Shown: positions 1,115-41,462, numbered from the stretch's first letter. The stretch: 58,574 bases of DNA from Atractiella rhizophila (GCA_021432655.1 MU271358.1:1-58574), one strand, 5' to 3'. Numbers and translations: made by a program. The notes: generated by a model not told the origin, from the letters alone.

Positions 1115-2468
1115 TTTCAGTTTTCAAAGAAGGACAGAAAGAAAGTGATAGTGATGATACGACAATATGCTGGCTTTTCAGCACAACAACAGCTTCGACA
1201 AGTCCAGAACAAGGTAAAGCAACACTTGTCAATCAAACAAGCTGAGCCAACTTATATACGCACATATTTCGGGCAACCCAGTGGTAACCAGCGCGGAAAA
1301 GATGGAACACTTGTCCACGCCTCACTGCCCAAACCGAATCCTCTTTAAACGCGCTCATTCAGTGCAGTGTCGTTCCCTTGTGCAACGGGTGTGTAACCGT
1401 CCTCAGGAAACCGCTGGCCGCTTCAAACCATGTGGCAGAGCATTTGTACAAAGCGTTGTTCCCGAGGGGTGTAAAAGAGACAACGAACGGGAAAGTTCCT
1501 GATGAAGTAGTACGCGAACTTGGATACATATGGATATCATCTGCGAATCAGCAAGCAGCAAGCAGTTGCTTGAGAGTCATGCAGCCATGCTAGACACTTG
1601 AAATTAATATTGAAGGCAAAACACACCCTTATTCCACCCCTTTGCGAACAACACTTTCTCTAGTATCACCAGCCTTTCATAAGGCTTCATTCACCTTTGC
1701 GTTTCAATGTGTTCCGTCCGCCGGCTCCGTCTGACGCAATTATGTAATGGATGGAAGCAAAAAAGCAAAGGCAAGAACGAATCGGTGTTTGTGCTCCAGA
1801 CCACAGGCGTCCCAGGAAATAAGGAGAGACATGGAAAGCTCTCTGTGGTTACATAAACGGAAAAACTCTGAGAGAGCAGGATTTCGAGGGCAGAAAGGTG
1901 AGCAGCTGTTCGCATTGCAGTTGTGGTAGGTGAGAAGGATTCGTGCGTTCATTTGCCGGCGTACCGGCTGTTCAGAGAGTAGAACTGTACAGATTTGGCT
2001 AGGTACATCATCATATCGTAGCTAGTCAAGCCAATACTGAATCGGGGTGACTTGAAGCACAGATCCAATTTATTTTAGAAACCAAAAAAAAATGAAAATA
2101 CAATTCGTATCATTCGCGTCGTCAATACTCATGAGATGAAACGGACGTATGTGACATATCTCAAAACTCGTTCTAAAGAAGATCAAGGAAGCGGCAGCGT
2201 GAATACAGTCAAAGTCAGCACTACTAGATGTGTGATGCAGTGGGGTGCAGTGGATCGTAGTCACGCTCTAACTTGGAGACTGGATGCGAAAACAGAAAGA
2301 GGTAAAAAATGAGAAGCAGAAAACGGATGGAAGCTACGTTGACGAAAATGATGTTTCACGTTTCTGGGAGAGAAAAGTTCAAGTGAAATTCGATGTGCTG
2401 GCATCTCTGGCTGCCCCTTGCCACTTTTCCTTTGCAGCTGGTGCGTACCCCGTGATGGATGGATATGC

Positions 2469-3255
2469 TTACTGAGTTCGAGAGGCTTGCATCGTTCGAG
2501 TGGCCTGCTGAGGTTGCATTTGAAGCTGAGGGTTATAATCGAGAAGTCCCAATCTGTGCATGACTAACTCGATCCTTTCCATTGGACTCCATCCGCGTGA
2601 AACACTCTGCCTCTCCGTTTAGCATTGTTGCTTTGGCCAAAAGGAAACTCACATCGAGGTATACCGCCCCAATGATAGCCTTGACCAAATCTACGCAGAA
2701 TGCTTCCCCAAAAGTTTGCAAATTATGATATGCGAAATCTTGAAGCCCATACTTCTTGCATGCATTTTCGAGGGGAGGTCCCGACAGGCAACGCTGAGTG
2801 GTTTGGCAGGTTAATTCTGAATATTGATCTCATTACAAACGATCAACGGTATAGAGGTGCATACTTCCGTCGTCTCCCAGACCGAGACGGTGGATGACCT
2901 GCAAGAAAATGAGTGTTTACCGACTGGGAGGTCGAGGCGTACCACTATTTGAGCTGTTTTCATGGCCGCATCACCTAAACTGTGGGCGATTTGAGTTCGC
3001 AAATTGTTCCATGAGATATCCGGACACCTACCGTGCAAGCCCTCCATTTGCACCTTGAGGGCCGCCAGAATAACTCGAATGTGTGATTGCCTTGAACCAC
3101 AGGTCATGGTTTCGGTCCGTAGGGTAGCCGGTGAGGGCGCCCAATCGGTGGAAACGCCGCAAGCGTTCTTCCTCTGAGACCTGTTACTTTTGCCTCGCTG
3201 CAGAAGAAGTGCAAGCATACTCACCAAACTGACGGCGCGATTCGCTGGGATCCAT
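2469..3255 (-). CDS. Stand-alone RNase III-domain protein, copy 1 (catalytically degenerate, ~180 aa, 6 exons)
   Basis: Spliced: MDPSESRRQF/EEERLRRFHRLGALTGYPTDRNHDLWFKAITHSSYSGGPQGANGGLAR/LGDAAMKTAQIV/VIHRLGLGDDG/KLTCQTTQRCLSGPPLENACKKYGLQDFAYHNLQTFGEAFCVDLVKAIIGAVYLD/SVSRGWSPMERIELVMHRLGLLDYNPQ... This is colinear with the RNase III motifs LGY, ALTHRS, NERLEFLGD, EG.LS and ADxxEAxIGAxxLD. Confidence 0.8.
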
Positions 3256-6200
3256 GAGAGCGGAATACGGATTTGATAACTCAGTGCAGCGTTGCAGTCG
3301 GTTTCGTTGCTGATCAACAGGCTACGATTGACCCTTTTTATACCTTCCGTGGCCAAATTGTACGCTGGCGAGAGGCAAGGCGCAAACTGTGCAGTCATGC
3401 AAAAGTGTGGGTCCCAAGTGACCTGACAAGTTTGCTTCCATTAATCTGTGTGTACTATGGATCAGAAGTCTCATGACCATCGAAGCAGCTCGGCTGAATA
3501 GTGCTCCAGCTTTTTTTTCAACGGGAGCGTGTGTGCTCAGATTAATGACGAAGCTCTGTTGCCTTTTGGACTGAATGTTTGTCTCCGATCCATAAATGAA
3601 CACTTGTTCGCCCTTTTGACTTTTTTCGCTTGATATTGCGATTTTTCGTCACCAAGTAGAAAATCCGGATAGGGAATTCCTTGCTCTTCCCTTGCCTGCT
3701 GAGTGCAGCCTGTTGGTTTCCCGTATAGAACAGTATGCCAGTCGAATGCCATGGTTCATGACTGATTTGCGTCGATCCGAGTCCTCGCGATTCAATCAAG
3801 TTGGAGCTGTTGTCCAGATTTATAGGCCTACGTGCTCTAGTTAGCGGTGACATGCTGACATGTTGTCAAATGTCAGACTGTCAGACTCTCGCGACCGGGC
3901 TGCATTCAAAACTTCGGCGGTCCTAATCCGTGACTTCAGAGAAAGCGTCAATATGTGGATGTCATGACTTTTATGGAGTTTCAGGGTAATATAAATCGCA
4001 AGCACAGATTTCCGTTGACGTTCCGAACAGAGAATGACATGTTCTTCTCAGAGAGCGTTCGCTCATCGCAAGCAATAACAAACAGGCAACAACGAGTGCT
4101 CGTCGCTACCACGGCTAGCTGCAGCAGTCCTTCGTCTTCATTTCATTTTTTGTCAGTTTTGGAAAGACTCGGCGATTTGGTCCAGATGTCCACGATTTTG
4201 CCTCATTCACAGCGTGTCAGAATTTAACTCGAGCATTAGAGGGACGAGTGGAATGCTTGGTCCTCCGAAACTAGTGGCTGCTGCCCTAGCCGAAGCGAAA
4301 TAATTGGGCGAGGGCATGGGCATGGATAGGTCACACCAGGTGTGTGTGTGGATGTGGATAATGAATTCAAGCAAACAAACAACGACGTTAATAAGATCTA
4401 TATTATTTCAGTCAAGTCATTTCTCCTATGGACCTCGGGTGAGAAAGGTTCACAAAATTGCATTTTTACGTGATCAGTGGCGAACCGTTTGAACGAGAGA
4501 ATGCGCCAGCTTCGTTCACGTCTCCTACTCTTCCTTCGTTGTCTAGCCTGTGGATGGCGGCTCGGGCTGTCCAACCGTCTTCTCCAGTATCGGAACAATA
4601 ATTTTATCTATCAAATTAACCTGTTTCATTGTCAACCATTCCAGGTATTTGAAATGATACCTCTTTTCTTCGATTTATGCGCAGCCATAATTCTATCGGA
4701 CTTGTCCAGAGTCGTGGGGTCTCCTCAGAGTTTGATTGTTTCCGGAGGGATAGTAGCTTCAACATTATCATAAAAACGGGCAGTGCGCACGAAATAAATG
4801 TCTGCCGTAGCTTTCGTGGAAATTTTACGAAATCAGTAAAACGCAGGATAGAAAAATAAATCAGTAAAACGCGGGATCAGAAAAATATTGACTGTCTTCC
4901 TCCTCATTCATGGAGCAAAGATGCTGCCTGAGGCCTGAGGCCTGCCTGAGAAACGAAACAAAGAACGCCTTGTGCATAAACTGACTGGAGGATAGATGAG
5001 GCGATATGCTTGCCTTGTTCTTAAGAGCAGGCATCCTCGTCAATCCACAACTGAGAGCAAGCGTTCTTCCTCTGAGACCTGTTACTTTTGCCTCGCTGCA
5101 GAAGAAGTGCAAGCATACTCACCAAACTGACGGCGCGATTCGCTGGGATCCATGAGAGCGGAATACGGATTTGATAACTCAGTGCAGCGTTGCAGTCGTT
5201 TTCGTTTCTGATCAACAGGCTACAATTGACCCTTTTTATACCTTCCGTGGCCAAATTGTACACTGGCGAGAGGCAAGGCGCAAACTGTGCAGTCATGCAA
5301 AAGTGTGGGTCCCAAGTGACCTGACAAGTTTGCTTCCATTAATCAGAGTGTACTATGGATCAGAAGTCTCATGACCATCGAAGCAGCTCGGCTGAATAGT
5401 GCTCCAGCTTTTTTTCAACGGGAGCGTGTGTGCTCAGATTAATGACGAAGCTCTGTTGCCTTTTGGACTGAATGTTTGTCTCCGATCCATAAATGAACGC
5501 TTGTTCGCCCTTTTGACTTTTTTCGCTTGATATTGCGATTTTTCGTCACCAAGTAGAAAATCCGGATAGGGAATTCCTTGCTCTTCCCTTGCCTGCTGAG
5601 TGCAGCCTGTTGGTTTCCCGTATAGAACAGTATGCCAGTCGAATGCCATGGTTCATGACTGATTTGCGTCGATCTGAGTCCTCGCGATTCAATCAAGTTG
5701 GAGCTGTTGTCCAGATTTATAGGCCTACGTGCTCTAGTTAGCGGTGACATGCTGACATGTTGTCAAATGTCAGACTGTCAGACTCTCGCGACCGGGCTGC
5801 ATTCAAAACTTCGGCGGTCCTAATCCGTGACTTCAGAGAAAGCGTCAATATGTGGATGTCATGACTTTTATGGAGTTTCAGGGTAATATAAATCGCAAGC
5901 ACAGATTTCCGTTGACGTTCCGAACAGAGAATGACATGTTCTTCTCAGAGAGCGTTCGCTCATCGCAAGCAATAACAAACAGGCAACAACGAGTGCTCGT
6001 CGCTACCACGGCTAGCTGCAGCAGTCCTTCGTCTTCATTTCATTTTTTGTCAGTTTTGGAAAGACTCGGCGATTTGGTCCAGATGTCCACGATTTTGCCT
6101 CATTCACAGCGTGTCAGAATTTAACTCGAGCATTAGAGGGACGAGTGGGATGCTTGGTCCTCCGAAACTAGTGGCTGCTGCCCTAGCCGAAGCGAAATAA

Positions 6201-6953
6201 TTGGGCGAGGGCATGGGCATGGATAGGTCACACCAGGTGTGTGTGTGGATGTGGATAATGAATTCAAGCAAACAAACAACGACGTTAATAAGATCTATAT
6301 TATTTCAGTCAAGTCATTTCTCCTATGGACCTCGGGTGAGAAAGGTTCACAAAATTGCATTTTTACGTGATCAGTGGCGAACCGTTTGAACGAGAGAATG
6401 CGCCAGCTTCGTTCACGTCTCCTACTCTTCCTTCGTTGTCTAGCCTGTGGATGGCGGCTCGGGCTGTCCAACCGTCTTCTCCAGTATCGGAACAATAATT
6501 TTATCTATCAAATTAACCTGTTTCATTGTCAACCATTCCAGGTATTTGAAATGATACCTCTTTTCTTCGATTTATGCGCAGCCATAATTCTATCGGACTT
6601 GTCCAGAGTCGTGGGGTCTCCTCAGAGTTTGATTGTTTCCGGAGGGATAGTAGCTTCAACATTATCATAAAAACGGGCAGTGCGCACGAAATAAATGTCT
6701 GCCGTAGCTTTCGTGGAAATTTTACGAAATCAGTAAAACGCAGGATAGAAAAATAAATCAGTAAAACGCGGGATCAGAAAAATATTGACTGTCTTCCTCC
6801 TCATTCATGGAGCAAAGATGCTGCCTGAGGCCTGAGGCCTGCCTGAGAAACGAAACAAAGAACGCCTTGTGCATAAACTGACTGGAGGATAGATGAGGCG
6901 ATATGCTTGCCTTGTTCTTAAGAGCAGGCATCCTCGTCAATCCACAACTGAGA
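3159..6953. repeat. Near-identical 1.9-kb direct tandem duplication (3159-5056 / 5057-6953)
   Basis: Sequence starting gcaagcgttcttcctctgag recurs at offset 1897-1898 with only a handful of differences. The ORF track repeats identically (3955/5852, 4304/6201, 4477/6374). Confidence 0.95.
5057..5153 (-). pseudogene. 5' fragment (exon 1, intron 1, start of exon 2) of RNase III-like copy 1 created by the 1.9-kb duplication
   Basis: ATGGATCCCAGCGAATCG...GAGGAAGAACGCTTGC stops abruptly at the duplication junction. Confidence 0.7.
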
Positions 6954-7270
6954 CAGGCAGAACACATTTCCATTGAATTAATCACTCCTTCGCCATAGCT
7001 CGAATATGTATCCTATCGTCGACCACCCTCCTAAGAACCTGAGCAAACAGGTAGCAGCGATAACAACAGAAGACCTCCACGCTTCGCCGCTTTCCAGCTA
7101 AGGTGCAACTCCTTAGGTCGTCCTCGCCGGAGAGGTGCATAATTAGATGTCGGGCTCGGCGTTGGGACTTGTCCTGGTCGGCTCCGGAAGGAATGCGGTC
7201 GACGATACTCGAACTTGACTGCAGAGGAAATAACGAACGAACCTTGTTTGATACTTCGGCCATAGGCATC
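5300..7270 (-). pseudogene. Degenerate F-box-like gene relic
   Basis: 5' end reads SIVDRIP...LIMHLSGEDDLRSCTLAGKR (F-box-like pattern). Downstream DNA is homologous to 9060-10760 and 12500-14157 with patchy conserved peptides (VACDER..EK.MSF, INLDN, WI.DKQ) but has stops and frameshifts. Confidence 0.4.
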
Positions 7271-7901
7271 ACAGGGAGTAGGGAGAGAGGGAGAGAGGGA
7301 GAGAGGGAGAGGTTTATATGGGCGGGACAGGATGCGACGGTAAAGAAAAGGTGCGGAGCTCATCGCATTGAAGAGTCGGAGATGAGAGGGTTTATTTACC
7401 AGAGTAACTGTTTAGAGAGGTAGAGAGTTGCGATTTTACAGATCTGGCTAGGTATCATCATCATATCGTACCTAATCAAGCCAATGTTTGAAACGGCGAA
7501 ATTGTAAAGCGGACAGATCAAGTGCATCGAAAAATACAGAAAACTGTTATCATTGCGGTCGTCCATAATCCCGAGATGAAAGATGAGACGTATCTTAAAA
7601 CTAGTTCTCAGGAAGGGCAAGAAGAAGGGGGCAGTGTATGTGGTAAAACGTAGTGCTGCTGAACGCAGACTATAGACGCGAAACCAAGGAAAGTCCTGGA
7701 ACTACGGGTATCGTGCATGAGATCATCGTAGAGGTCATTAGCTAACTGGGAGAAACTGATGAAAGAAAAAAGGCGTGGCCCAAAAAATGAGAAGCAGAAA
7801 ATGAATATGAGGCAGTCAATTGATGGAACCTGTGTCGGAAGTGATGTGTTTTTCCATGTTTCTGTCAGACAAATTCAACCGAAAATCTACATGGATGGGG
7901 G

Positions 7902-8853
7902 TTATATCTGTCTGGCCCTTGTCGTGTCGTCGTTCTCAGCTGGCGCACCCACCATGTTGGATGGAGAGGCTTGCTGAGGTTGAAAGAATTGCTGCGCTCG
8001 AGAGGCTCGCTGAGTTCGACAGGCTTGCTGAATTCGGGGGGCTTGCTGAGTTTGAGAGTCTTGCTGAGTTCGGGAGGTTTGCTGATTTTGAGAGTCTAGC
8101 TGACGTTGAGGGTCATAATCGAGAATCTCCAATCTCTGCATGACTCCCTCGATTTGGTTCATGGGATTCCATGTACGATAAACACTCTGTCCCTCCACTT
8201 AGCATTGCTGCTCTGTCCAGGAAGAAACTCACATCGATGTACACAGCCCCAATGATAGCTTTGACCAGATCTGCGCAGAATCCTTCTGCAGGTTGGCCAA
8301 GGTTATGATATGCGAGATCTTGAAGTCCATACTTCTTGCATATCTTCTCGAGAGGCTGGCACGACAGGCAACGCTGAAGGGTCTGGGAAGTTAATTCTGA
8401 ATATTGGCCCATTACAACAAAAAAATCGACGGGATAGAAGCACACACGTCCGTCGTCTCCCAGACCGGCACGGTGGATGACCTGCGAAAAAAATGAGAGT
8501 CTAGCGGTTGGGAAATCGAGACTTACCACCGTCTGGACTGTTTTCATCGCCACATCACCCAAACTGTGGACAATTTGAGTTCGCAGATGGCCTCTACGTG
8601 CGGACACTATACCGTGCAAGCCCTCCATTTGCGCCTTGACGGCCGCCAGAATAGCTTGAGTGTGTGATTGCCGTACGCCACAGATCGTCATACTGTCGGT
8701 CCAAGGGGTAGCCGATCAGTCTGTGCAATCGCTCGAAGCGCTCTTCCACTGTGCCTCCAGCAGCACCATATCGTGGGGGACCTGTCACTTTTGCTGGCTG
8801 CAGAAGTAAGCCTACTCACCAGACTGAGGGCGCCGTTCGTTGGAGTAGTCCAT
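7902..8853 (-). CDS. Stand-alone RNase III-domain protein, copy 2 (catalytically degenerate, Q-rich repeat tail)
   Basis: Same five intron positions as copy 1. Reads MDYSNERRPQS/GPPRYG..ERFERLHRLIGYPLDRQYDDLWRTAITHSSYSGGRQGANGGLAR/LGDVAMKTVQTV/VIHRAGLGDDG/..CKKYGLQDLAYHN..FCADLVKAIIGAVYID/SVYRTWNPMNQIEGVMQRLEILDYDPQ plus tail. Confidence 0.82.
7968..8111. repeat. Coding minisatellite, 8 x 18 bp (consensus about GGCTTGCTGAGTTCGAGA), encoding (S/P)RTQQ(A/D)-like hexapeptides on the minus strand
   Basis: Units are directly visible (ggcttgctgaggttgaaa, ggctcgctgagttcgaca, ggcttgctgagtttgaga ...). Confidence 0.85.
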
Positions 8854-9059
8854 AAGGTCGGATACGGACGAGAACCTCGGTGCAGTATGGCAGTCCCCTT
8901 TCTCGAGGCAGTCTAACCTGATAGACAGCAGCTAATCATGCCTTTTTATAGCTTTCGGCGACTCTATAGACAGATTGTACACTAAGCAGAGGGTGCTGGG
9001 CGCAAAAAGAGTTGCTCCAATATCACTTGCCCATGTTTGCTTGTCCCTGGCTTGTTGTC

Positions 9060-10760
9060 CATTGATCAGTTGTGAACCAGGGATCGACAGTTCATGACCG
9101 TCGAAGAAGGAGGTCGGTTGAATGATTCGGTCACCGCAAGAGTGTTTTGCTCAAATTCATGACAGCGTTTGGACAGTTGTTTTTCTGCGATCCAAAGCTA
9201 CAATAATATTTACTCACGATTTATCCTTCTGACGTGGAAACTTTTATCACGAGGTAGAAACCGCAGATCAGTAATGCTGCTCTGCACAAGGGTGTTCAGT
9301 GCAGCTCGATGGCTGCCACTTAGAACGGTATTAGAGCAAAGGAATTGCATAATCCATGCATATTCCTGAATGATTGATGATTTGTGTCAATCCGAATCTT
9401 TCGGATCAGTACTATTCAGTGTTATCCAGATTTATAAGCACACGTGCTCTTGTCAAATCGTCAAAACCGAGCAATCGGGCTACGTTTACAACCCCAGGCA
9501 TGCTCGGTTTGTGGCTCCCGAGAATGCTGTCATGATTTTCATAGAGTTTCATGGTAATAGAAAGCGGGAACCTGACCGAAATGCAGATTTCGTTAAAGTG
9601 CAGAACAGCGAATGACATGCTCTTCTCACGCTCACCGCAAAATACAACCATTAGGTAAACAAAGACCTGCCGTTGTTTTTGAGACCTACAACGTTGGTCC
9701 TTCGTCATTTTTCTGGTTTTGGAAAGTTTTTGGCGATTTGGTCCCGACACTTAACTCGAGCATTGGAGACATGAGTGAAAATTTCTGTTCTCCGAAACTT
9801 TTCGGCGGTGTCCCTCATGCCATCGCCCAAGCGAAATAGTTTGGCAAGGGCACAGAGGAGTGATTAATTCAAATGTGTGATGCGTGTCTCATTATGGATT
9901 GACTGGGGTTCCCGAACACAAGACAACCTTATCGCGCCTTCTATTCCTTTGTTCAGATGCACATGGCTTTTTTTGTATCCTCAGCTTCGCTGCATGGATG
10001 AAGACGCCTAGGAACTTTGAACCCGCGAAATTTCACCTCTTTGTAGCACTACCAGTCTTTGATGGTTAAGTTGGCGACCTTATCCATTTGCGTACGAGGG
10101 AACCAGAATAGAACCATACAAGTTCGATAGAATTGTGACGGCGCACAAATAGAAGAAAAGGGTTCATTGTCATTCACTGCGGCTTGGAGGAGGTGCACTG
10201 ACAATGAAAACAGATAACTCCTATACTTTCAGGGCAAAACCACTGCATCAATGCCGCAAAAGACGGCTGAACAGCCCTAGGCGCCTTCTTCGTGGTGGGG
10301 AAAGGGGACGGTGGTCAAGCTGGCAACAGAAGAGTTGAGACTTGAAGGAAGCTTGCCCTAGCCTTTCTCTCAGTGAAACATACCGCTGTTCACCCGGGTT
10401 CCATGATAGAGAAATCATTTGATCCGAAATAAGGTAGATTGCGTTAACGTCGCTGTTTTTTTGCTTCAATTCAGTGCCATGACACAGACCTGGTGGGACT
10501 GCCGCCATGGTTGGATGTATATTGGATCATCGATGTATCATCGAGAAACCTGAGCAAAGGGGTAGCAGAGATAAATCGAGAAGAGCTCCCGGCTCCGCTG
10601 CTTTCGTAACTAAGGTGCAACCCATCAGCTTGTCCTCACCAGAGAGGTGAGTGAATAAGGGAAGGTGAGTTGTGTTCCGACCGTCGGCTCCGGGTAAACA
10701 TGACCGGGTAAACATGATCTGGATCGACGTTGCTCGGGCAGCCAGCTCGCTAAGAAACGT
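9060..10760 (-). pseudogene. Degenerate F-box-like gene relic (second paralog)
   Basis: LFTHLSGEDKLMGCTLVTK matches HLSGEDDLRSCTLAGK near 7100. 9060-9860 is homologous to 3440-4320 and 12550-13460. No continuous reading frame could be built. Confidence 0.35.
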
Positions 10761-11365
10761 TGAGAAGTTAGTAGCGAGTATTAAAGGGAGCGCGGAGATG
10801 AGAAGAAGCTGTTTGTGGTTTAAAAACGGGAAAAGGTAGATATTGCTTTCAGGTGAGCAGATGTTTGCATTGCAAGAGTTGAAGGCGGGGCGGCGAGAGG
10901 GATTCGAGGTTTCATGCTCTGGCGGCAGTTTAGAGGAAATAGCGCGGTCGTACTCATCATCATATCGTACCTAATCAAACTGCTATCTGAAACGGAGAGA
11001 CTGAAAAAGCTCCATCAAACCAAAAATTGATTGTAATTGGGGAGGGAAACATGGGGCAGAGAAACTGGTATCAGAAGAATTGGTATCAAGCAAGTCGTCA
11101 CGCGTCAAAAGTCGTGAGGTATATCTCAGAGCTGGTTCCAACAAATTGAGGCGACAAGAGGATGTCGGTTGTGAATGGCTAGAACTCTGTATGTTGTAAG
11201 ACATCATGAGGCATATACGGTATCTGGGTCAAACGGGACGAAATGGAAAAACATGAAACAGAGATGAGAAGAGGGGTAGAAAACGACGGCGATGGGACTG
11301 ATTATGGATGACATGCGCCGTAGTGTACGATTTCTCCAACTTTCTTTACTGAGCGAAAATCTGCC

Positions 11366-12366
11366 TCAATAATATTCGTAGTTGGTTTGCTGGTACTGTT
11401 CTTGACTGCTACCCCGCGGGTTGTATCCTTGGTTGTTATGTCGCTGATGGAATACCGGGTTGCCACTCGGCTGGTGGTACATTTGGTTGGCGATTGGCTG
11501 GTAGTATCCTTGGCCGCCACTCGGTTGGTTGTATCCTAAAGTGCCACTGGGAGGGTGGCTGTCCATTGTCGTTAATTCGCTAGCACCGTCTTGCTTTTGC
11601 TCGTGCTCTTGCTCCGGCGCCTGTTGTTTCTCAGGGTCATAAAGAAGGCCCAGATTATCCATGACTTTCTCGATATTTTCCATGGGGTTGTAGTCACGAG
11701 AAACACACTGTCACCCTCATTAGCATTGTTAGTTGACCAGGAGAGGACTCACGTCGATGTACACGGCTCCAATGATTGCCTTGACCAAATCCGCACAGCA
11801 GCCTCCAGGAAAGTCTGGCATTTGATGATATGCAAGATTTTCGAGGTTTATCCCCCTGCATGCTGCTTCGAGTGGACGTTGGGACAGGCCGCCTTGGATA
11901 ACTCGGGTGTGTAAACCTGAATTGCAAGGTCATTCCAAATATCAAAGGCAGAGGCACAGACCTGGGTTATCTCCCTTGCCAGCACGGTAGAGAACCTGCA
12001 GAGAATAAGAGTGAAACGATTGTCGTCTGAGGACATACCGCCGTCTGAACCGTTTTCATCGCCACGTCACCCAAGCTGTAGAAGGACCTGAGTCCGCAGA
12101 TGCTTGCTCATTCAGCAGCCACGTACCGCGCGAGCCCTCCATTGGCGCCCTTGACGGCGGTAGAATGGCTCCGGTGTGTGATTGCTTCGAGCCACAGGGC
12201 GTACTTCTCTTTGACAATAGTATATCCAGTGATTCTGGATAATTGCTCGAAGCGCTCCACTGCTGTGGGTACAACTATTCCATACCCTGGAGAATTCTGT
12301 CAGTTTCTTACTTTGAGACAAAAGAATTGAAGCGGCCTCACTAGCCTGAGCGTTGCTGTTGGACAT
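11366..12366 (-). CDS. Stand-alone RNase III-domain protein, copy 3 (catalytically degenerate, Q/N/Y/G prion-like tail)
   Basis: Same exon structure. Reads MSNSNAQA/RYGIVVPTAVERFEQLSRITGYTIVKEKYALWLEAITHRSHSTAVKGANGGLAR/LGDVAMKTVQTA/VLYRAGKGDNP/GLHTRVIQGGLSQRPLEAACRGINLENLAYHQMPDFPGGCCADLVKAIIGAVYID/CVSRDYNPMENIEKVMDNLGLLYDPEKQQ...YQQTNYEYY. Confidence 0.82.
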
Positions 12367-12499
12367 GGTGCGAACTACGGAAGTAAAAACCTTGATGAAT
12401 ATTGGCGTATGTTCTCGGGGATTGCAATCTGAGACCAACCGAAGCTACATCGTGCAATGGTGCTTTTATAGCTTCCGCGACCTTATGAGCAGATCACTC

Positions 12500-14157
12500 T
12501 CTGCTGTAGCAGAGCGTGAAGCGTTCAAAACTGTGGGCCTAAACAACATGCCAATGTTTTTGCATCCATTGTAAACCAAGGTTGACGCGGTATCTTGTGA
12601 CTTTTTCGAAGGTCGTCGGTTGAATGAGACTGACTCCAGGATCTGCTCATCAGGAGGGTTTCCTCAGATTTAATGCCCGTAATCTGATATCCCCTTCCAT
12701 CCAGTTGTTTGTCTCTGAGCCAGGAGATCACGCAATCGTCGCCCATTGGAATTTTAATAGTTCGATCTTAAGAGTTTTGTAACCGAGTAGATAAGTCAGA
12801 GAGTCAATAAAGCTCATGCCTGTCACCAACTCGATTAGCGTCAGTCGAGAACAGCACTCCGGAGGTGTGGCACATTCATAAATGATAGGTTTCGATCCGA
12901 GCCCCTCGATATTCAATAAGTTGGAGTCGGTGTCAAAGGCTTCGTGTTCTAGTTTCAGAGGAAGGTTGCTCCAGCGGTGACACGGTGGCAGGATTTGTGA
13001 GCGATTGTGCTGTATTCACAACTTCGGCACCTTCGTGGCTCGAAAAGAAGCGACGATAGGTTAGGCAGTGAACGGATGTCATGGGTTTCACGGTAATATA
13101 AAGTGCAGGCTTGATCGAAACACGATTCAAAGGAAATTCCATGCGAAGTGCCAAACAGCGAAAGAGTGGCTCTTCCAAGAGGATTCGTTCATCACAGGCA
13201 ACCGTCGACACGCCAAAAAGGGACCGTATTATCAAGGCAGGGCAGGTTAGTCTTCCGTCAGCTTTCTGAGTTTTGGAAAGATTCGACGATTTGGCGCCAA
13301 TGATATCAGCTTGTTTATTGCTTCCTTGCTCAATTCACGGCGCGACAAGAACCGACGTTTAACTCCCGCATTGGAAACACGGTGGAATGTTTGTGTGCTC
13401 CAAACCTCGTCGCTCAAGGCGTCGCCGAAGCGAAACAGTTTAGCTAGGGCACAAGAGGCAGTCCCTCAGGTTTGTGCCTGGGTACTGACTTCACGCAAAC
13501 AAACAACGACGTTAATGCGATCTACATTCTTTCAGATCAAATGATTTCTCTACCATAGACCTCGGGTAAGAAAAATACGTACCATTCAATTTTGCCCAGA
13601 TCAGTCGTGTTATCCTTCATTGAGAGAACGGCCCTGCTTCGTTCAAGTCTCCTACTCTTCCTTGGCCATTCTATGCCAAACAGTCCTAGTTGACGATTGA
13701 TCCCCCGTTCTCCCGCTTATGGGAGGTGTCCTTGAGCTGTCCAACTCGAATGATCCGTTTCTGTATCCGAGCTCCTCCTCGCAGGTGAGTGACATGGATA
13801 ACGATTTTCTTCGAGTTATGCGCAGTCATGATTGCACTTGTATAGTGACGTGGGTTTGAACGTGTACTGAGGGATTGATCATTAAAGATCGCAGTGCACC
13901 AGAAATAAATGTCTTGCAGTGTTTTCCCCAGAACTTTACGAAATCAGTAAAAGCCGGATTCAGAACATTTTTTTGGGTGTCCTCTTCATGCAGCAATCTG
14001 GGGTGCCGAACAAAGAAAGCTTTGTGCATGAACTGAGCAGAGGAATAGAAGGCGCCATAAGCTTGCCTTGTTCTCATTGTCCTTAAGAGCAGGCATCCTC
14101 GTCTCAATCCACAACTGAGACGGGCATCACACATTTCCACTAAATAAATCACTCCTC
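12500..14157 (-). pseudogene. Degenerate relic homologous to 5300-6990, lacking its F-box-like 5' end
   Basis: Clear nucleotide homology (e.g. gcaggcatcctcgtc..aatccacaactgaga; ggacctcgggt; caaacaaacaacgacgttaat). Homology ends at about 14157. Confidence 0.4.
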
Positions 14158-14173: not shown

Positions 14174-14672
14174 ATGTACCTGTTCGCACTTCTTTTCTTC
14201 CTACAAAGTCAAACCTTCTTTGCTTATGCCATGCCGCAACAATGTGAGTATCCTCTTCCTTTCAAGTTTCTTAAGAACAACATTCTGATGCTTTCCAGCT
14301 CTACCCCTAACAACAGGGGGACTGCACCCTATAGGATTCAGCTTGGGCCCTCTGGTGACTGATGTAATCCAACCACCATCCTTGAACGAGCTGAGTGCGT
14401 TGGGATGGAGCACCATCATGTCCAGCACTAGCTTAGAAGTCACGACTGCGACTGTCACAGTTCTGGTATCACCAACTGAAACGGTTCCTGTGGTTTCCTC
14501 CACCCCCGCATATCCCAACAGCGCCGGAGAAGATGATGAATCGAAAACTCGTTTGTTAACGTTGACGCTGGTCGTCGTGGGCATAATATCTGGACTAGTT
14601 CTTGGTGTGAGTGACATCACGGCATCCCTTGTGAAAGTGAATGAGAATCTAAAAGATCGGGACAGGCGTTGA
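14174..14672 (+). CDS. Small secreted or single-pass membrane S/T-rich protein (2 exons)
   Basis: MYLFALLFFLQSQTFFAYAMPQQ signal-like exon, GTGAGT..CTGAT..CAG intron spliced in frame to ORF 14343-14672, which has an S/T-rich stalk and hydrophobic LLTLTLVVVGIISGLVLGV. Confidence 0.6.
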
Positions 14673-15064
14673 GCGCTGTTCTCTTGGTGCGTCGAAAGGA
14701 GAGAAAGGATTTCATAAAGCGCACCGAGATGTTACAACATGCTGTTTATGGAGACGACTTCGCTAAGTAATTCAATGAACCCTTTGCAACGGTACGCAAC
14801 TTGTTATTGTTATCATGAATGGCGACAATGGTGGCTTTTCGGCTAGTTTCCATATGATTGGACGCCATTTTAAGCTCGCCTCATCTTGTTTGGTCTGGTT
14901 GAATCCTCCAGCTCCAGAGAAGATGAGTTCAATGCCATAAACTCAACGGTGCCAAGAAGCGGGACAAGCGTCAGAACGTTAAGGACGCAAAACATATGTT
15001 TCGAAGTTGCACATCAGACAACGATAAAAAGAGCTTGGATAAATTCAGTGGTCCTTCCACACGA

Positions 15065-16788
15065 TCAAATGAGGATGATCTTCTTTTTCTTCTTCTTCTT
15101 TGCCGGTGGGCGGAGCCCTGCATCATCCGTCCTTTCATGGAGCTCTTTATCGTTTGGGTCTGGAAGACCTGCTCCGACATCCCCTGGATGTACCTCAATC
15201 TTGTCCGACTCCAACTCTTCTTTTTCCGGCTGAGTTGTCTTTGCCTCTGAAGGTAATAGTACCGCTGTCTCCGGCATGAGGTCGCTTTCGGCGGGTCGTT
15301 TCAGAGGTGGCACGGAATGCGGCTGGTCTGTGTCTGAAACCGGCGTGCGGATGACAGGTGGAGTCCGAGGGCGGCGTGGAGGTATGGTATTGGTATCGAT
15401 GAAAGGCGTCGGACGCTTTGGGAGTGGATGGATCATTCGCTGTCCTGGTTGTGGCACCACAGCCGAAAGGACTGGTTCCCCGTTTGATTTTGAGTTCGGC
15501 GTAGGTGCGGGTGCTGGCACCAGTGTTGATGTGGATGTTGAGGCGGAGGTGGAGGGCGGATGTCGCTCCTTCATCGACTCCAGTTTACGTTCCAAGGCGT
15601 GTATCTTGCCTGCTGTCCTACACCCAACGACGCACAAAGAGAAGAAAAGCAGTCGTCAGACGGTACAAGGAAGCGGAAACTGAAAATTTTCTGGATCTTC
15701 CGGTTACAAGTCTCATAAGGAAACTGGAAGGAATATGGCGAGCATGCTTCTTCGGCTTTGCCTCCTCTGTCTCTTGCAATATCGTGCAACCTGTAGCTGA
15801 TGAAAAGTACCTCTGCCTCCATAACCTCTTCACCCACGATAAACGTAAATAATAAACAATCTTATCCAGCCATCGTGAAGATGGTACGGAAAAGAGCTGA
15901 TTTCAAGACCGAAGTTCAAAGAACAGAACAGAAAGGAACTGAAAAAGGAGACGGGAAGCGAGAGTGCTGCTGAAATCCCGGCCTCTCCAACACTCCGCAA
16001 GAACTGAAAGCAGGAAGCGGCGCACATCGTCCTGATGTCCTGGTTGAACCGGCTGTGAGCTTGAAAACTCATGGTTTCATCGACGATGGCCCAAGCGGTG
16101 CCAACGCTCGTGCTGGTTGTGACAGATTTCAGGATCTTGCGTTCTCAGTGATCGCAAACAAAGCAGAAGAGAAAACGACACGAATAGAATGTACTGGAAC
16201 TGAGTGAGAAAATCATGTGCTGTCTTGCACCATACGAGCGACATAGTCGCTGGGAGCATCATCTAGGAGCTAGGAGACTTATCGTGGAGACTTATCGTAG
16301 AAGCGAGGAAGAAGATGGTGAGGCAGATTTGACAGTCCACTCTCTTGGGAAGAAAGACTACAGCTTCGCCTTCTTCCCTGACGTGAATCTCAACACGAAG
16401 CAAGTGCAAAGATAGCAAAGATGGTACCAATAGCCTAGTGAAGACAAAGGAAAGAAACTTACGTCCTCGGACCAACGGTTCTCAGGATCCCACCTTTCCC
16501 CTCCTTATCCCTATCCTTCGACTTATCCCCTTCTTTCCTCTCCTTCGCCCACCTCGCCGCCATCCTCTTTCCACCCACCACCCTCCCATTCAATCCCACA
16601 ATCGCCGCCTCTGCGCTCTCCCTCGTCGAGAACGAAGCGAAAGCATACCCTCTCGGCTCGCCTGATGGTGTGAAGAGGAAGTCGAGGGCGGTGAGTCTGC
16701 CGTATGGCTGGAGGAGACGGAGGAGAGCGTATTCGGTGAGAGTGGGAGGGAGCGAGGAGAGGTGGATGCGGGTGTTGTCAGCATCCAT
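15065..16788 (-). CDS. RBM18: RBM18-like single-RRM RNA-binding protein (2 exons, 845-nt intron)
   Basis: RIHLSSLPPTLTEYALLRLLQPYG..LDFLF..GEPRGYAF RRM. Splicing 16462 to 15618 joins in frame to TTAGKIHALERKLESM (RBM18-type KIxAxExKL motif) and a C-terminal basic NLS-like run. Confidence 0.72.
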
Positions 16789-17065
16789 CCCTTTTGGCTC
16801 GCGCGTCGGTGCCCCAGAAATGTCGCGCAATGAGAAAGACAATAATGCGCCAGGATCGCGATGACGATCGAGGGTGGCAAATTTAAGAGTTAGTTGGCAC
16901 TGTTCGAACCGTGTTCTAGAACACCGGTCAACCTTGCCTCTCTTCTTTTGGCATTTCAAACAGATGGACATCCGCATTTTTTCAATGCTTTGCCTTTCCA
17001 CCAACTTTTATTGTTGCTCTATCTTGTCTCTGAGCTTGGGCTCATAATAACATAATACACACACG

Positions 17066-32245: not shown

Positions 32246-33728
32246 ATGTCGTCAGACGAAGCAGACTACACGCCTGCCCTGCCTCCCGACCTGCTCCCCG
32301 CCAAAGCGTCCACCTCCAGCCCTCCCAAACCACCAACCATAGGTCCCTCTCGTCCCACCTTCGCCGACCTCTCCGTCCCTATCTCACGTCCGCTCCCCGC
32401 TCCTGACGATTCAGATGATGACTATGGGCCAATGCCACTCCCAGCTGGGGTGTCTGCACCGGAATCCGATGTGAGGAGCGAGTGGATGGCGAGGGAAGAG
32501 GAGAGAGAACGTGGAGAGAAGGAGAGGGAGGAGAAGCGGTTGGAGAGGCCGGAATGGATGATTAAGCCTCCAGAGAATTTGGGGTTTAGTGGTACGTCTT
32601 CGTCCATTTAATTGTGGTGGGAGGTCGATATTGATACTTTTTTTGTGCTTGGGGTGTAGTCCCTGATCCTACTAAGCTTAAAGCTAGAGGGTTTATGCAG
32701 ACCAACCGCCCGCATAAGGCGGTGACGTCTTCTTCGAAGGACAACTCTCTGTGGACTGAAACCAAAGCGTCCACCTCCAGCCCTCCCAAACCACCAACCA
32801 TAGGTCCCTCTCGTCCCACCTTCGCCGACCTCTCCGTCCCCATTTCACGTCCTCTTCCCGCTCCTGACGATTCAGATGATGACTATGGGCCAATGCCACT
32901 CCCAGCTGGGGTGTCTGCACCGGAATCCGATGTGAGGACCGAGTGGATGGCGAGGGAAGAGGAGAGAGAACGTGGAGAGAAGGAGAGGGAGGAGAAACGG
33001 TTGGAGAGACCGGAATGGATGATTAAGCCTCCAGAGAATTTGGGGTTTAGTGGTACGCCCTCTTCTATTTAATTGCGGCGGGAGGTCAGCATTGATACTT
33101 TGTTTGTGCTTGGGGTGTAGTGCCTGATCCTACCAAGCTTAAAGCTAGAGGGTTTATGCAGACCAACCGCCCGCATAAGGCGGTGACGTCTTCTTCGAAG
33201 GACAACTCTCTGTGGACTGAAACGCCTCAGGAACGCGCTCAAAGGTTGGAGGATGAGGTGCTTGGGAAGAGGAAGAGGGCAACGGTGGAAGGAGGTGATG
33301 AGGAGGAAGATGAAGGAGAGCGGAGGAAGAAGAAGAGGGATGAGGAGATGAGGGAGAAGGTACGAGAGTTGGAGGGTGAGGGGTATCGGAATGAGAGTTT
33401 GGTAGAGAAGCATAGGAAGAAGATGGAGGAGGATACGAGTTCGAAATCTCGGAAGAAGGAGAAGAAGGAGAGAGAGAAGAAGGAAAAGAAAGATAGGAAA
33501 GAAAAGAAGGACAAGGATAAAGAGCGGAGTCGGAAGGAGAAGAAGAAGAAGCGTCGGAAGGAGGAGGATGATGATAGTGAAGAGGAGGATGAGAAGCCTC
33601 CTGCTATCTGGGATCATGACCGTGATATGGGTTTGAAGGGGAGGTTGATGGACGAGAAGAGTCGTAATAAGTACATTGCAGGAGCAAAGGATTTAGGCTC
33701 CAAGTTTGGCGGTGGCTCGTATCTTTGA
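32246..33728 (+). CDS. GPALPP1: DUF3752 / GPALPP motif-containing protein, with internal in-frame duplication in this assembly
   Basis: PALPP, IGPSRP, YGPMP, RPEWMIKPP, DPTKLKARGF, SLWTETPQERAQRLEDEVLG, SLVEKH, WDHDRDM, LGSKFGGGSYL. Confidence 0.8.
32301..33222. repeat. 461-bp direct tandem duplication (32301-32761 / 32762-33222)
   Basis: ccaaagcgtccacctccagc...gtggactgaaa occurs twice. Differences are concentrated in the 68-nt intron. Confidence 0.95.
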
Positions 33729-39432: not shown

Positions 39433-41462
39433 ATGGCACTACGCCCTGTGTTACGAAGAAACAGTCTTTTTGCATTGAGGCGACCATTTCTTCCATCTCG
39501 GCATGCCTTGCCTCACAATCGACGCTGCATCTCCCATGCCGTCGCTTCCACGCGTCTTCTCGCCTTCCGGCGTCCATATCTTTCCATATTCTTGCTCTGC
39601 GGCTCAGGTTACACCCTTTATGGCATTCTAACAGGTTATCCTTCGACTAGACCGACGGAATACGACGCACTCCTTCCCCATCTTTCAAACTCATCTCTCG
39701 CCTCAAATGCTCATTTGCGCACACTACCATTGGGAGAACTTTGTCGCTCTTGGTTCGTTTATTTGGTATCAGGGAATGGACTGCTTGTTAGTATGGGGCC
39801 CTCCATCATTGGACTGCTGGATTGGGGAAAACAAAATATACCTGTTGTTGGCGCTTGGCCGTGGGATGGATTTATGTGGGTACGTTTCCTGATTCATGCA
39901 TATCTAGATATCAGAGAAGTACCAATACACTTACGACACGAACAGATCATGAAACGAACCTTCTTCCCGCATTTCGTTGCTGGTGAAAGCGCTCAACAAA
40001 GCTATCCTTACGTCGCCAAACTCGCTTCCCAAGGAGTCGGGGCATCTCTCAACTACTCAGCCGAACCTCTTCCATTCGCACCAAGGGATGGTGTTCAAAC
40101 AAATGCCTTGCTGAAAGGAGTGCTAAAGGCTGACCTTGACGCAGCTAATGATGCTATCCTCCTCGCTTCTACGTTTCCGGATCCTGCTGCCGCTGAGGAT
40201 GGTGATATCCTGAAAGCCACAACCCTTGCAATAAAGCTTACATCCTTCCTGCGCGACCCTTCAGTGCTCAGGAGAGCAACGCAGGTTTTGGTCAACATGC
40301 GATCTGAAGAGACCAGGTGGGAGAAGGATTGGCCTGAGTCTCCAGTTTGGCTCGACGGAGATACGGAGGCATTGACGAATCTTTATGACGAAATGAGGAA
40401 GTTGCTTCTGAACGCGAAGAGGAGAGGTGTTAGAGTATTGATTGATGCAGAGGAGTCCTGGTATCAGCCTGCGTGCGTCTTTTTAATCCTGTCGAGAATG
40501 GAAAAGACTCAAACTCCAAACAGTATTGACAAATTTTTCCACCTTCTGGCGGAGGAAGTAAACAGCAATAGGCCGTCATCAACTCAATCTTCCAAATCCT
40601 GGTTCTCTCTCCTTTCTTCGTCGTCGTCTCCGGTGTCGAAACGTGAACCAGCTCCTCTTCCGACGGTGTATAACACCTATCAAGCCTACTTGAAATCCAC
40701 ACCTCACAACTTACAAGTTTCCCTCTCACGAGCAAAGGCGTTAAACTATTCTCTTGGCATTAAACTAGTACGAGGAGCGTATATGTTCAACGACCGAAAA
40801 GTTGTGTGGGATACCAAGGAGGAGACCGATAACTGTTGGAACGAGTCCGCGAAAATGCTGGTACATAGGATGAAAGAAGATCATTCATTAGCTCTTGTTC
40901 TAGCTACTCATAATACAACAAGCGCCAGAATTGGCATTAAAGTATACTTTCCTTCCCAAGCTAAAACTTTTGACCGTGCTGACATGTCTTGATCAACAGG
41001 CTCTGATTGATGAAAGTCTTGTCGAACCAGTGGGACAAGGTCAATACCGTGCTACTTCGGCTCTGGAGGGACGACTTGCTTTCGGTCAACTGATGGGCAA
41101 GTTAACTTTTGTCACCCGTAGCCAACACTGACTCTTTGGGGTTATACGATGTAGGGATGTCAAACTCCCTTACCCATGCAATAGCCAATACCCTGCTCCC
41201 TCGTCCAAACGGACATGCTGTACCTTATGTCGCAAAAGCCAGCCCATACGCATCAGTCGCGAGCTGCATTCCTTACCTAATGAGGCGGTAGGCATCTTCC
41301 TCTTTCCATGCATCCATGAGGCGCGTTGATTTGTTTCACAATAGGGCAAATGAGAACCGTAGTATATTGGAGAGCGGGGAAGAGCGGATGGGCGCACGAG
41401 AAGAAAGAAAGTTAGTGGCGAGAGAGATCAGACGGAGGCTCGGGTGGACATGGGAGACATAG
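39433..41462 (+). CDS. PUT1: Mitochondrial proline dehydrogenase
   Basis: Arg-rich presequence; HFVAGE, AIKLT, VLIDAEESWYQP, VYNTYQAYLK, GIKLVRGAY, LATHN, FGQLMGM, PYLMRRANEN. Confidence 0.93.

Follow-up and report, generated by a model that had tools for sequence, protein, structure and literature searches.

What can a ribonuclease III (RNase III) fold do once part of its metal-binding site has been replaced? The question is raised by three related genes, here called c1, c2 and c3, in a 58,574-nucleotide stretch of the genome of the root fungus Atractiella rhizophila (GCA_021432655.1, MU271358.1:1-58574; this whole stretch is the window below). Their products resemble RNase III and carry a lysine at the position of the metal-binding glutamate E117 of the Escherichia coli enzyme. 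The explanation preferred here, with a probability of about one half, is that c1-c3 are a tandem, lineage-specific expansion encoding a dimeric, non-cleaving module of RNase III fold, which would hold RNA or serve as a scaffold.

The window is eukaryotic, with short GT..AG introns. Gene models of the three copies were built by hand from the minus-strand sequence and then translated, with the following results (aa, amino acids):

2469..3255, minus strand: c1, exons 3255-3225, 3173-3032, 2979-2943, 2898-2865, 2816-2653 and 2606-2469, 181 aa
7902..8853, minus strand: c2, exons 8853-8820, 8748-8613, 8563-8527, 8481-8448, 8396-8233 and 8186-7902, 229 aa
11366..12366, minus strand: c3, exons 12366-12312, 12262-12127, 12075-12039, 11995-11962, 11916-11753 and 11707-11366, 255 aa (263 aa in the NCBI model)

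Each copy consists of six exons with an open spliced frame. All introns (15/15) have GT..AG ends and are 43-71 nt long, and the five introns of each copy show the same phases (1, 2, 0, 1 and 0) in c1, c2 and c3. These models bear out a preliminary description, made from the sequence alone, according to which the copies have five intron positions in common and open spliced frames; the open reading frame (ORF) track of the window also agrees with its remark that no copy is readable as one ORF. The c1 model is identical, letter for letter, to database protein P0006 (A. rhizophila KAH8922264.1). The c2 model and P0002 are alike in 224 of 229 residues, the sole disagreement being the acceptor of intron 4, where paralog P0001 sides with the hand model and not with the NCBI choice. 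The c3 model and P0003 are alike in 254 of 255 residues and disagree in the model of intron 1. The database counterparts of c1-c3 are all located on one NCBI contig of 83,635 bases and annotated without function, and a query with a read-through piece of c2 returned five A. rhizophila 'hypothetical proteins'. Seven genes of this family, referred to below as AtrA, are present in the database, c1-c3 being three of them.

By fold, c1-c3 are members of the RNase III superfamily. The Pfam family PF14622 (cut-off 35 bits) matched c1 (P0006) with 40.1 bits, c2 with 42.1 bits and c3 with 34.6 bits, just under the cut-off; the paralogs scored 38.4-44.7 bits, and in one scan of five AtrA proteins all five matched, four of them above the cut-off. 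Single exons gave sub-threshold RNase III matches of 12-15 bits, and full-length proteins were needed. A profile built from five members and searched against the PDB had its best match in E. coli RNase III (7r97, E 2e-4), followed by Aquifex RNase III including E110K mutants, with 11 distinct sequences at E ≤ 1. The AlphaFold2 model of c1, made with a 138-row alignment, reached a predicted local distance difference test score (pLDDT) of 91.0 and a predicted template modelling score (pTM) of 0.85. Foldseek comparison of this model with the PDB yielded 21 matches at E ≤ 0.001, the best being RTL4, a plant protein with a single domain (9h4a, TMt 0.82), and the endonuclease domains of bacterial RNase III (TMt 0.77). 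A match to the RNase III fold, which the preliminary description had proposed as a check, was thus obtained in three ways (PF14622 at 34.6-44.7 bits, profile E 2e-4, Foldseek), and the motifs it quoted, ANGGLARLGD and C[AV]DLVKAIIGAVY[LI]D, are found in all three translated copies. Pfam searches of the AtrA proteins and of a related set, AtrB, returned RNase III families only, with no match to a double-stranded RNA-binding domain (dsRBD, dsrm), PAZ or helicase; Pfam, the PDB profile search and the AlphaFold model agree on the single RNase III domain described earlier. The domain is followed by C-terminal tails of 19-88 residues, in which Gln and Asn together make up 26-37%; they can hardly be aligned, and the tail of c3 is rich in Tyr.

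Known classes of RNase III were compared with c1-c3 and set aside. The model of class 1, bacterial-type RNase III (TIGR02191), is matched with 20.5-24.3 bits against a cut-off of 166.25, in its N-terminal part only, and the dsRBD is lacking; NCBIfam gave no match besides these far sub-threshold ones, which are of no use for naming a subfamily. Dicer and Drosha (classes 2-4) do not fit proteins that carry one domain and no second Pfam family. As to a viral origin, the viral fold library gave generic giant-virus and iridovirus RNase III matches only, at 12-21% identity, and no sign of such an origin.

For the assignment of active-site residues, c1-c3 were aligned with a hidden Markov model (HMM) to E. 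coli RNase III 7r97, the chain of which is numbered from residue 7; the region of E100 is a loop, where the alignment is not trusted. The HMM alignment confirms the substitutions noted in the preliminary description: all three copies retain D45 and D114 and have Ala in place of E41 and Lys in place of E117. The position of E38 is occupied by Gly, and that of E65 by Asp in c1 and c2 and Asn in c3. The metal-binding tetrad E41/D45/D114/E117 reads Ala, Asp, Asp, Lys, where the enzyme has four carboxylates. The codons in question are:

3034..3036, minus strand: Ala codon GCA of c1 at the E41 position (signature ANGGLARLGD, 3051-3032 plus 2979-2970)
2680..2682, minus strand: Lys codon AAG of c1 at the position of E. 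coli E117 and Aquifex E110, within CVDLVKAIIGAVYLD
8615..8617, minus strand: Ala codon GCA of c2 at the E41 position
8260..8262, minus strand: Lys codon AAA of c2 at the E117 position, synonymous to the AAG of c1 and c3
12129..12131, minus strand: Ala codon GCG of c3 at the E41 position
11780..11782, minus strand: Lys codon AAG of c3 at the E117 position

In the Aquifex enzyme E40, D44, D107 and E110 hold both Mg ions, and the residue E110/E117, which binds both of them, is called functionally essential in the available part of the source (PMC3867540). The PDB matches include Aquifex E110K and E110Q mutants crystallised with uncleaved double-stranded RNA (dsRNA), according to the entry titles. 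Because E117 is Lys in c1-c3 and E117/E110 bridges both Mg ions, canonical two-metal cleavage is unlikely; judged by their residues, the three proteins would be incapable of cutting dsRNA in this manner.

The relatives of c1-c3 were searched for widely. In an exhaustive profile search, 144 proteins out of 1.84 billion representatives matched at E ≤ 0.001, but only four of them at E ≤ 1e-10, these four all being from A. rhizophila; a second search gave seven proteins at E ≤ 1e-8, all (7/7) from A. rhizophila and spread over four contigs. Next in rank came dsRBD-containing RNase III of bacterial type and a number of short proteins from eukaryotes. When the clade alignment served as the query of a word-indexed profile search, bacterial RNase III dominated the result, and the sole additions were homologs from Aspergillus section Nigri. 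A quick maximum-likelihood tree was calculated for the domain only (138 rows × 154 columns), with support from the Shimodaira-Hasegawa-like approximate likelihood ratio test (SH-aLRT) only. The six AtrA rows form one group (SH-aLRT 99), sister (SH-aLRT 86) to five AtrB-like rows, namely P0012/P0148 and three transcript-sized contigs. AtrA and AtrB lie inside a 21-row clade (SH-aLRT 95), apart from 117 mostly bacterial-type rows, together with single-domain proteins of Aspergillus, Aureobasidium, Extremus and a lichen fungus and one protein labelled as coming from an archaeal metagenome-assembled genome (MAG). Among the alignment rows with Ala at E41, 18 of 19 fall in this clade, and its members from outside Atractiella have mostly retained Glu at E117. 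By grouping in the quick tree, by the single domain and by Ala at E41, c1-c3 belong with the short fungal single-domain proteins. Look-alike clusters of the ESM Atlas, one of 190 members (mostly Basidiomycota) and one of 117 members (Ascomycota), are a lead only. On these comparisons the Atractiella genes are a derived lineage, multiplied locally, within a broader fungal family that is uncharacterised. The preliminary description had seen in them the best candidate for an undescribed system in the window, a view weakened by their position in the tree among short fungal RNase III-like proteins that have a single domain and Ala at E41.

Several relatives have features of their own. P0012/P0148 represent a second, more divergent RNase III-like subfamily with a Ser-rich N-terminal region and Glu, Gln and Gln at D45, D114 and E117, respectively. 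P0007 is a 387-aa model with a shortened AtrA domain behind an unrelated N-terminal part; a fusion or a mis-annotation is possible. Short single-domain proteins with Ala at E41 also occur under archaeal labels (P0070 from a Methanoregulaceae MAG and a Thermoplasmatota cluster of the Atlas), and these group in the same clade as the fungal proteins.

Dimer modelling, another check named in the preliminary description, returned a homodimer with the canonical interface. Two copies of c1 residues 1-162 scored 0.79 in 3/3 runs, with 0.02 as the best of three controls, a prediction that may reflect memory, likeness rather than binding, because RNase III dimers are solved. The mark set for this score is reached by 21 of 30 one-chain pairs against 0 of 23 single chains for microbial proteins, and by 17 of 29 against 0 of 30 for eukaryotes. 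At least 96% of the contacts agree between the runs, and the pLDDT of the partner is at least 91. The predicted interface comprises residues 50-84 and 134-145, i.e., the signature helix and the second motif. These are the two helices found to be constrained (see below); in RNase III dimers they make up the canonical interface, and they border the catalytic valley.

The same interface bears on the first of the rival explanations, in which the degenerate domain is a regulatory partner that heterodimerises with an active RNase III (Rnt1, Dicer or a short paralog) and modulates or inhibits the cutting done by it. Conservation within the protein is highest in the helix of the dimer interface, a canonical interface is predicted well above the best control, and RNase III domain interactions in the trypanosome editosome provide a precedent, in the available part of the source (PMC6800513). 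On the other hand, no active RNase III gene was found in the window by the Pfam scan of ORFs or by tblastn, and the degenerate site is common to all AtrA and AtrB paralogs seen. A regulatory partner of this kind is possible but rather unlikely.

Whether the genes are in use at all was addressed with RNA contigs from three runs, X1, X2 and X3, which show the presence of RNA and not transcript ends; the joints given are those among the matches listed. In the soil metatranscriptome run X1, all seven pieces are at least 99% alike and cover 3' parts of c1, c2 and c3. An X1 contig joins 2606 to 2653, with intron 5 of c1 removed, and an X2 contig joins 11707 to 11753, with intron 5 of c3 removed; X2 and X3 both hold the joint 11915>11963, which corresponds to intron 4 of c3. 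For c2, X1 contigs of 100% identity cover 7557-7707 and 7788-7938. Spliced transcripts, sought at the suggestion of the preliminary description, are thus present for intron 5 of c1 and c3 and intron 4 of c3. The acceptor of c3 intron 1 is uncertain: a piece of an X2 contig ends at 12285, and P0005 likewise favours an exon 2 start near 12286. The acceptor of c2 intron 1 is uncertain as well (8782 or 8749); P0005 and P0004 suggest that the motif RYG..V..ERF is coding, and it is also readable inside the 'intron 1' of c2. Upstream of the genes, the motif TATAAAAA was read directly from the sequence at 3335..3342 on the minus strand, 87 nt before the ATG of c1, and has equivalents at 8943-8950 (c2) and 12464-12470 (c3); it is a putative promoter element. 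RNA also covers regions downstream of the stop codons:

2120..2468, minus strand: likely 3' untranslated region (UTR) of c1 (X1, 2151-2310 and 2282-2483; X3, 2120-2606)
At least 7557-7901 and 10959-11365, minus strand: likely 3' UTRs of c2 and c3, respectively (for c3, X2, 10959-11371)

The regions beyond the three stops (1894-2187, 7036-7621 and 10547-11007) contain stretches 66-81% identical to one another, with no consistent reading frame. The RNA-covered regions could belong to long, conserved 3' UTRs or to non-coding transcripts of their own.

The ratio of nonsynonymous to synonymous substitution rates (dN/dS), calculated for the domain according to Nei and Gojobori, is 0.39-0.43 among the copies, with dS of 0.47-0.90. 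Bootstrap 95% intervals are 0.23-0.65, 0.25-0.69 and 0.27-0.67, and 1, 0 and 0 of 1000 replicates reach 1. The preliminary description had named a value near 1 as incompatible with its proposal; the ratio is about 0.4. In the blocks of the signature helix and the second motif, the proportion of nonsynonymous differences (pN) is 0.08-0.16 and that of synonymous differences (pS) 0.23-0.70, and purifying selection is concentrated on these two helices. The codon of the Lys itself differs synonymously between copies (AAG in c1, AAA in c2, AAG in c3). In the rest of the domain, c3 differs from the other copies with pN 0.38-0.40 and pS 0.44-0.51, close to neutral. The overall constraint is modest, because intron identity (0.66-0.74) is similar to exon identity (0.65-0.79), a comparison that is uninformative at such divergence and with introns so short.

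These values bear on a second rival, in which c1-c3 are relaxed, drifting duplicates, i.e., a recent amplification of a gene that is losing its function, expressed but of little consequence. Much would fit such drift: the near-neutral evolution outside the motif blocks and the similar intron and exon identities, the rapid turnover of the tails, a fresh partial duplication that left an orphan exon 1, the seemingly truncated or fused P0007 and the confinement of AtrA to one species (7/7 matches at E ≤ 1e-8). All three frames, however, are open over six exons despite dS of 0.47-0.90, the value 1 lies outside the dN/dS intervals, constraint on the motif helices is strong, 15/15 splice sites are intact and transcripts occur in three runs. 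Taken together, the spliced RNA contigs, dN/dS near 0.4 and the constrained motif helices argue against pseudogenes, and drift is considered unlikely.

A third rival holds that the proteins are still enzymes with altered chemistry or substrate, for example catalysis by D45 and D114 with one metal, Lys standing in for a charge or acting as a general base, or cutting of single-stranded RNA (ssRNA) as by Mucor R3B2. The distribution of residues at E117 bears on this. In the 138-row alignment the column contains E in 124 rows, Q in 6, K in 5, A and C in one row each and one gap, and all five K rows are AtrA. Lys is present in five of the eight Atractiella rows (c1, c2, c3, P0001 and P0005), and Gln occurs in P0004, P0012 and P0148, as well as in P0007, which stands outside the alignment. 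The E117K-equivalent substitution described earlier therefore holds for all three copies but is not a hallmark of the family, since paralogs elsewhere in the genome have Gln. With Gln on both sides of the AtrA/AtrB split, the simplest route is Glu to Gln to Lys, and the Lys probably arose from Gln in an already dead site, as far as the alignment can indicate. The earlier alternative that Lys substitutes for a metal ion loses weight through the Gln of P0004, P0007, P0012 and P0148. In favour of a retained activity, D45 and D114 are invariant in the six AtrA rows and Lys has been preserved despite a synonymous codon change; a change of specificity is possible in fungal RNase III domains, as Mucor R3B2 demonstrates (PMC8136814, available part), and Mini-III is active without a dsRBD (PMC3867540, available part). 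Against it, Lys is not required family-wide, E117/E110 is called essential and bridges both metals (PMC3867540), E110K and E110Q are the standard non-cleaving mutants according to the PDB entry titles, and E38 is lost too. A residual enzyme appears improbable on this balance.

Finally, it is very improbable that c1-c3 are ordinary mitoribosomal mL44/mL57 orthologs, the placement that the preliminary description had named as incompatible with its proposal: degeneracy is a feature of mitoribosomal RNase III-like proteins too, and the fold matches include such proteins at rank 30 or lower (3j6b_9, rank 30; 4v1a_h, rank 40), but the RNase III-domain chain of the Neurospora mitoribosome, 6ywe_9, was reached by the profile at E 1.9 only and over 31 residues, PF22935 (mL44 endonuclease domain) matched 0/7 scanned AtrA/AtrB proteins at E ≤ 0.01, the copies are seven and lineage-specific, and the acid-rich N-termini of c1-c3 seem unlike a presequence.

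The preferred explanation of a dimeric, non-cleaving module can be outlined as follows. The products would be small cytosolic or nuclear proteins with one RNase III-fold domain and a fast-evolving, disordered tail rich in Q, N and Y. They would form dimers of RNase III type via the signature helix, namely homodimers and perhaps heterodimers among paralogs. Minus three carboxylates and plus one Lys, the valley would be less acidic, and the non-cleaving module may hold structured or double-stranded RNA in it or act as a dimeric scaffold, with the low-complexity tails possibly contributing additional interactions. Selection would keep the dimeric scaffold while the surface and the tails diversify. 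The dead site was probably inherited stepwise: Ala at E41 is common with the wider fungal clade, E117 would then have been lost to Gln, still present in other paralogs, and Lys would have appeared later in the lineage of c1-c3.

Several observations weigh against this explanation or its extensions. The domain outside the motif helices evolves close to neutrality, and introns are about as similar as exons. The retention of D45 and D114 leaves room for a reduced or altered activity. Several rows of the tree are long-branched, and the search was a quick one with SH-aLRT support only. The dimer prediction was made without the 138-row alignment and possibly draws on memorised RNase III dimers. As to RNA holding, the isoelectric point (pI) of the domain is 6.1-7.7, near neutral and not strongly basic, and a dsRBD is absent from c1-c3; the dsRBD contributes much of the RNA affinity in class 1 RNase III enzymes. 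No signal peptide is evident by eye in c1-c3. Pfam was run on 157 of the 196 stop-to-stop ORFs of at least 90 aa in the window, leaving out those overlapping c1-c3 and some overlapping frames; in and around the array, as far as about 16.4 kb, these 157 ORFs contained no recognisable protein family, partner gene or transposon. The flanking genes are ordinary and encode an RRM protein, a LIM protein, a sulfotransferase, Nse4, a DUF3752 protein, an acylphosphatase, a proline dehydrogenase, a bromodomain protein, GDPD and a Snf2-type ATPase. Nothing in these housekeeping surroundings suggests a dedicated 'system', and the antiviral, decoy or effector roles considered in the preliminary description are hypothetical.

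A bolder version would see in c1-c3 natural rnc70-like RNase III dimers acting as metal-free dsRNA clamps, whose prion-like Q/N/Y tails sequester dsRNA in condensates and which compete with Dicer or Rnt1 to modulate RNA interference (RNAi) or mycovirus dsRNA, with fast-evolving surfaces and amplification as signs of an arms race. Such a scenario is speculative and should be regarded as improbable.

The neighbourhood of c1 has undergone a recent duplication, and the elements concerned are:

3159..6953: recent tandem duplication, units 3159-5056 and 5057-6953, 1.9 kb each, 99.5% identical
5118..5153, minus strand: orphan c1 exon 1, a gene fragment (11/12 residues by tblastn), 1898 nt from the c1 ATG

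The 1.9-kb duplication copied c1 from its promoter through exon 1 and intron 1 up to nucleotide 14 of exon 2, and the orphan exon 1 at 5153-5118 exists because of it. Besides this 12-residue fragment, tblastn of the window revealed no further copy. An older intergenic repeat, 65-85% identical, is located at 4149-5056, 6046-6989 and 13263-14156 and, inverted, at 9856-10503; it thus lies upstream of c1 and c3 and, in the inverted orientation, between c2 and c3, with no ORF or Pfam match. A spliced transcript contig at 13583-14589 on the minus strand joins 13997 to 14067 and overlaps a 176-codon open frame (14201-14731) without a Pfam match. Further along, an RRM-domain exon (PF00076, E 1.3e-12) was found at 16462-17007, within 15612-17007 on the minus strand, where about 850 nt between 15612 and 16463, bounded by CT..AC, are missing from the contigs, at the highest contig depth of the stretch examined; this suggests a large intron in a well-covered RRM gene. 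Two other tandem duplications occur in the window, one at 41421-43245 with a unit of about 1012 nt (97-98% identical) and one at 32301-33061, either within the DUF3752 gene or close to it, with repeats of about 461 nt (97%).

That an RNase III domain can be degenerate is already known. In the literature searched, no earlier description of a free-standing amplified family with a natural E117K/E110K equivalent was found, nor any paper on AtrA or on Atractiella RNase III-like genes (supplements lay outside the search), nor a functional study of short single-domain fungal RNase III-like proteins. A survey of fungal Dicers demands two RNase III domains, in its available part (PMC12663654), so single-domain proteins are excluded by its design. 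Should the proteins prove to bind dsRNA and leave it intact, fungi would possess a modulator of RNAi or dsRNA of a new kind, which would also be a natural tool; if the family is merely a drifting local expansion, the consequences are small. In a wider sense, the comparisons draw attention to a larger group of uncharacterised fungal proteins, a clade whose members are short, RNase III-like and devoid of E41.

Compared with known systems, c1-c3 share the fold with E. coli E117K (rnc70) and Aquifex E110K/E110Q and have Lys, or Gln in the Atractiella paralogs, at the Glu that bridges both Mg ions. In the profile alignment, ADLVKAIIGAVYID of the Atractiella family is paired with GDVFKALWAAVYID of the Aquifex E110K chain 1rc7. 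The rnc70, E110K and E110Q proteins come from the laboratory, as point mutants of a complete enzyme that has a dsRBD and retains the other three acidic residues, whereas in Atractiella the substitution occurs naturally, together with the loss of E41 and E38, in proteins devoid of a dsRBD. The rnc70 mutant behaves dominant-negatively. The closest natural relatives by the tree are short fungal RNase III-like proteins (Aspergillus sclerotiicarbonarius PYI03111.1, a 'ribonuclease III' of 154 aa, and proteins of Aureobasidium and Extremus). Like c1-c3, they have a single domain, a length of about 150-270 aa and Ala at E41; unlike c1-c3, they mostly keep Glu at E117 and lack the Q/N/Y tails.

Mitoribosomal mL44/mL57, which function through contacts of dimer type, and maize RNC1 are degenerate RNase III cases as well. 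Mitoribosome chains are fold matches to the c1 model, but beyond the superfamily the profile search showed no sequence kinship of the Atractiella proteins with them or with the editosome proteins described below, and no mitochondrial sign was seen in c1-c3. Mini-III has Ala at the E41 position. Plant RTL4 (9h4a), among the best structural matches, resembles c1-c3 in having one RNase III domain and no dsRBD. Mini-III shares this architecture and is active with it (PMC3867540, available part), and no Mini-III chain is among the listed sequence or fold matches of the family. Mucor R3B2 is another atypical fungal RNase III that dimerises; unlike c1-c3, it has two dsRBDs and cuts ssRNA, as stated in the available part of the source (PMC8136814). 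The KREPB proteins of the trypanosome editosome retain the RNase III fold, have lost the catalytic residues and, according to the available part of PMC6800513, work via dimer-type contacts, as proposed here for c1-c3.

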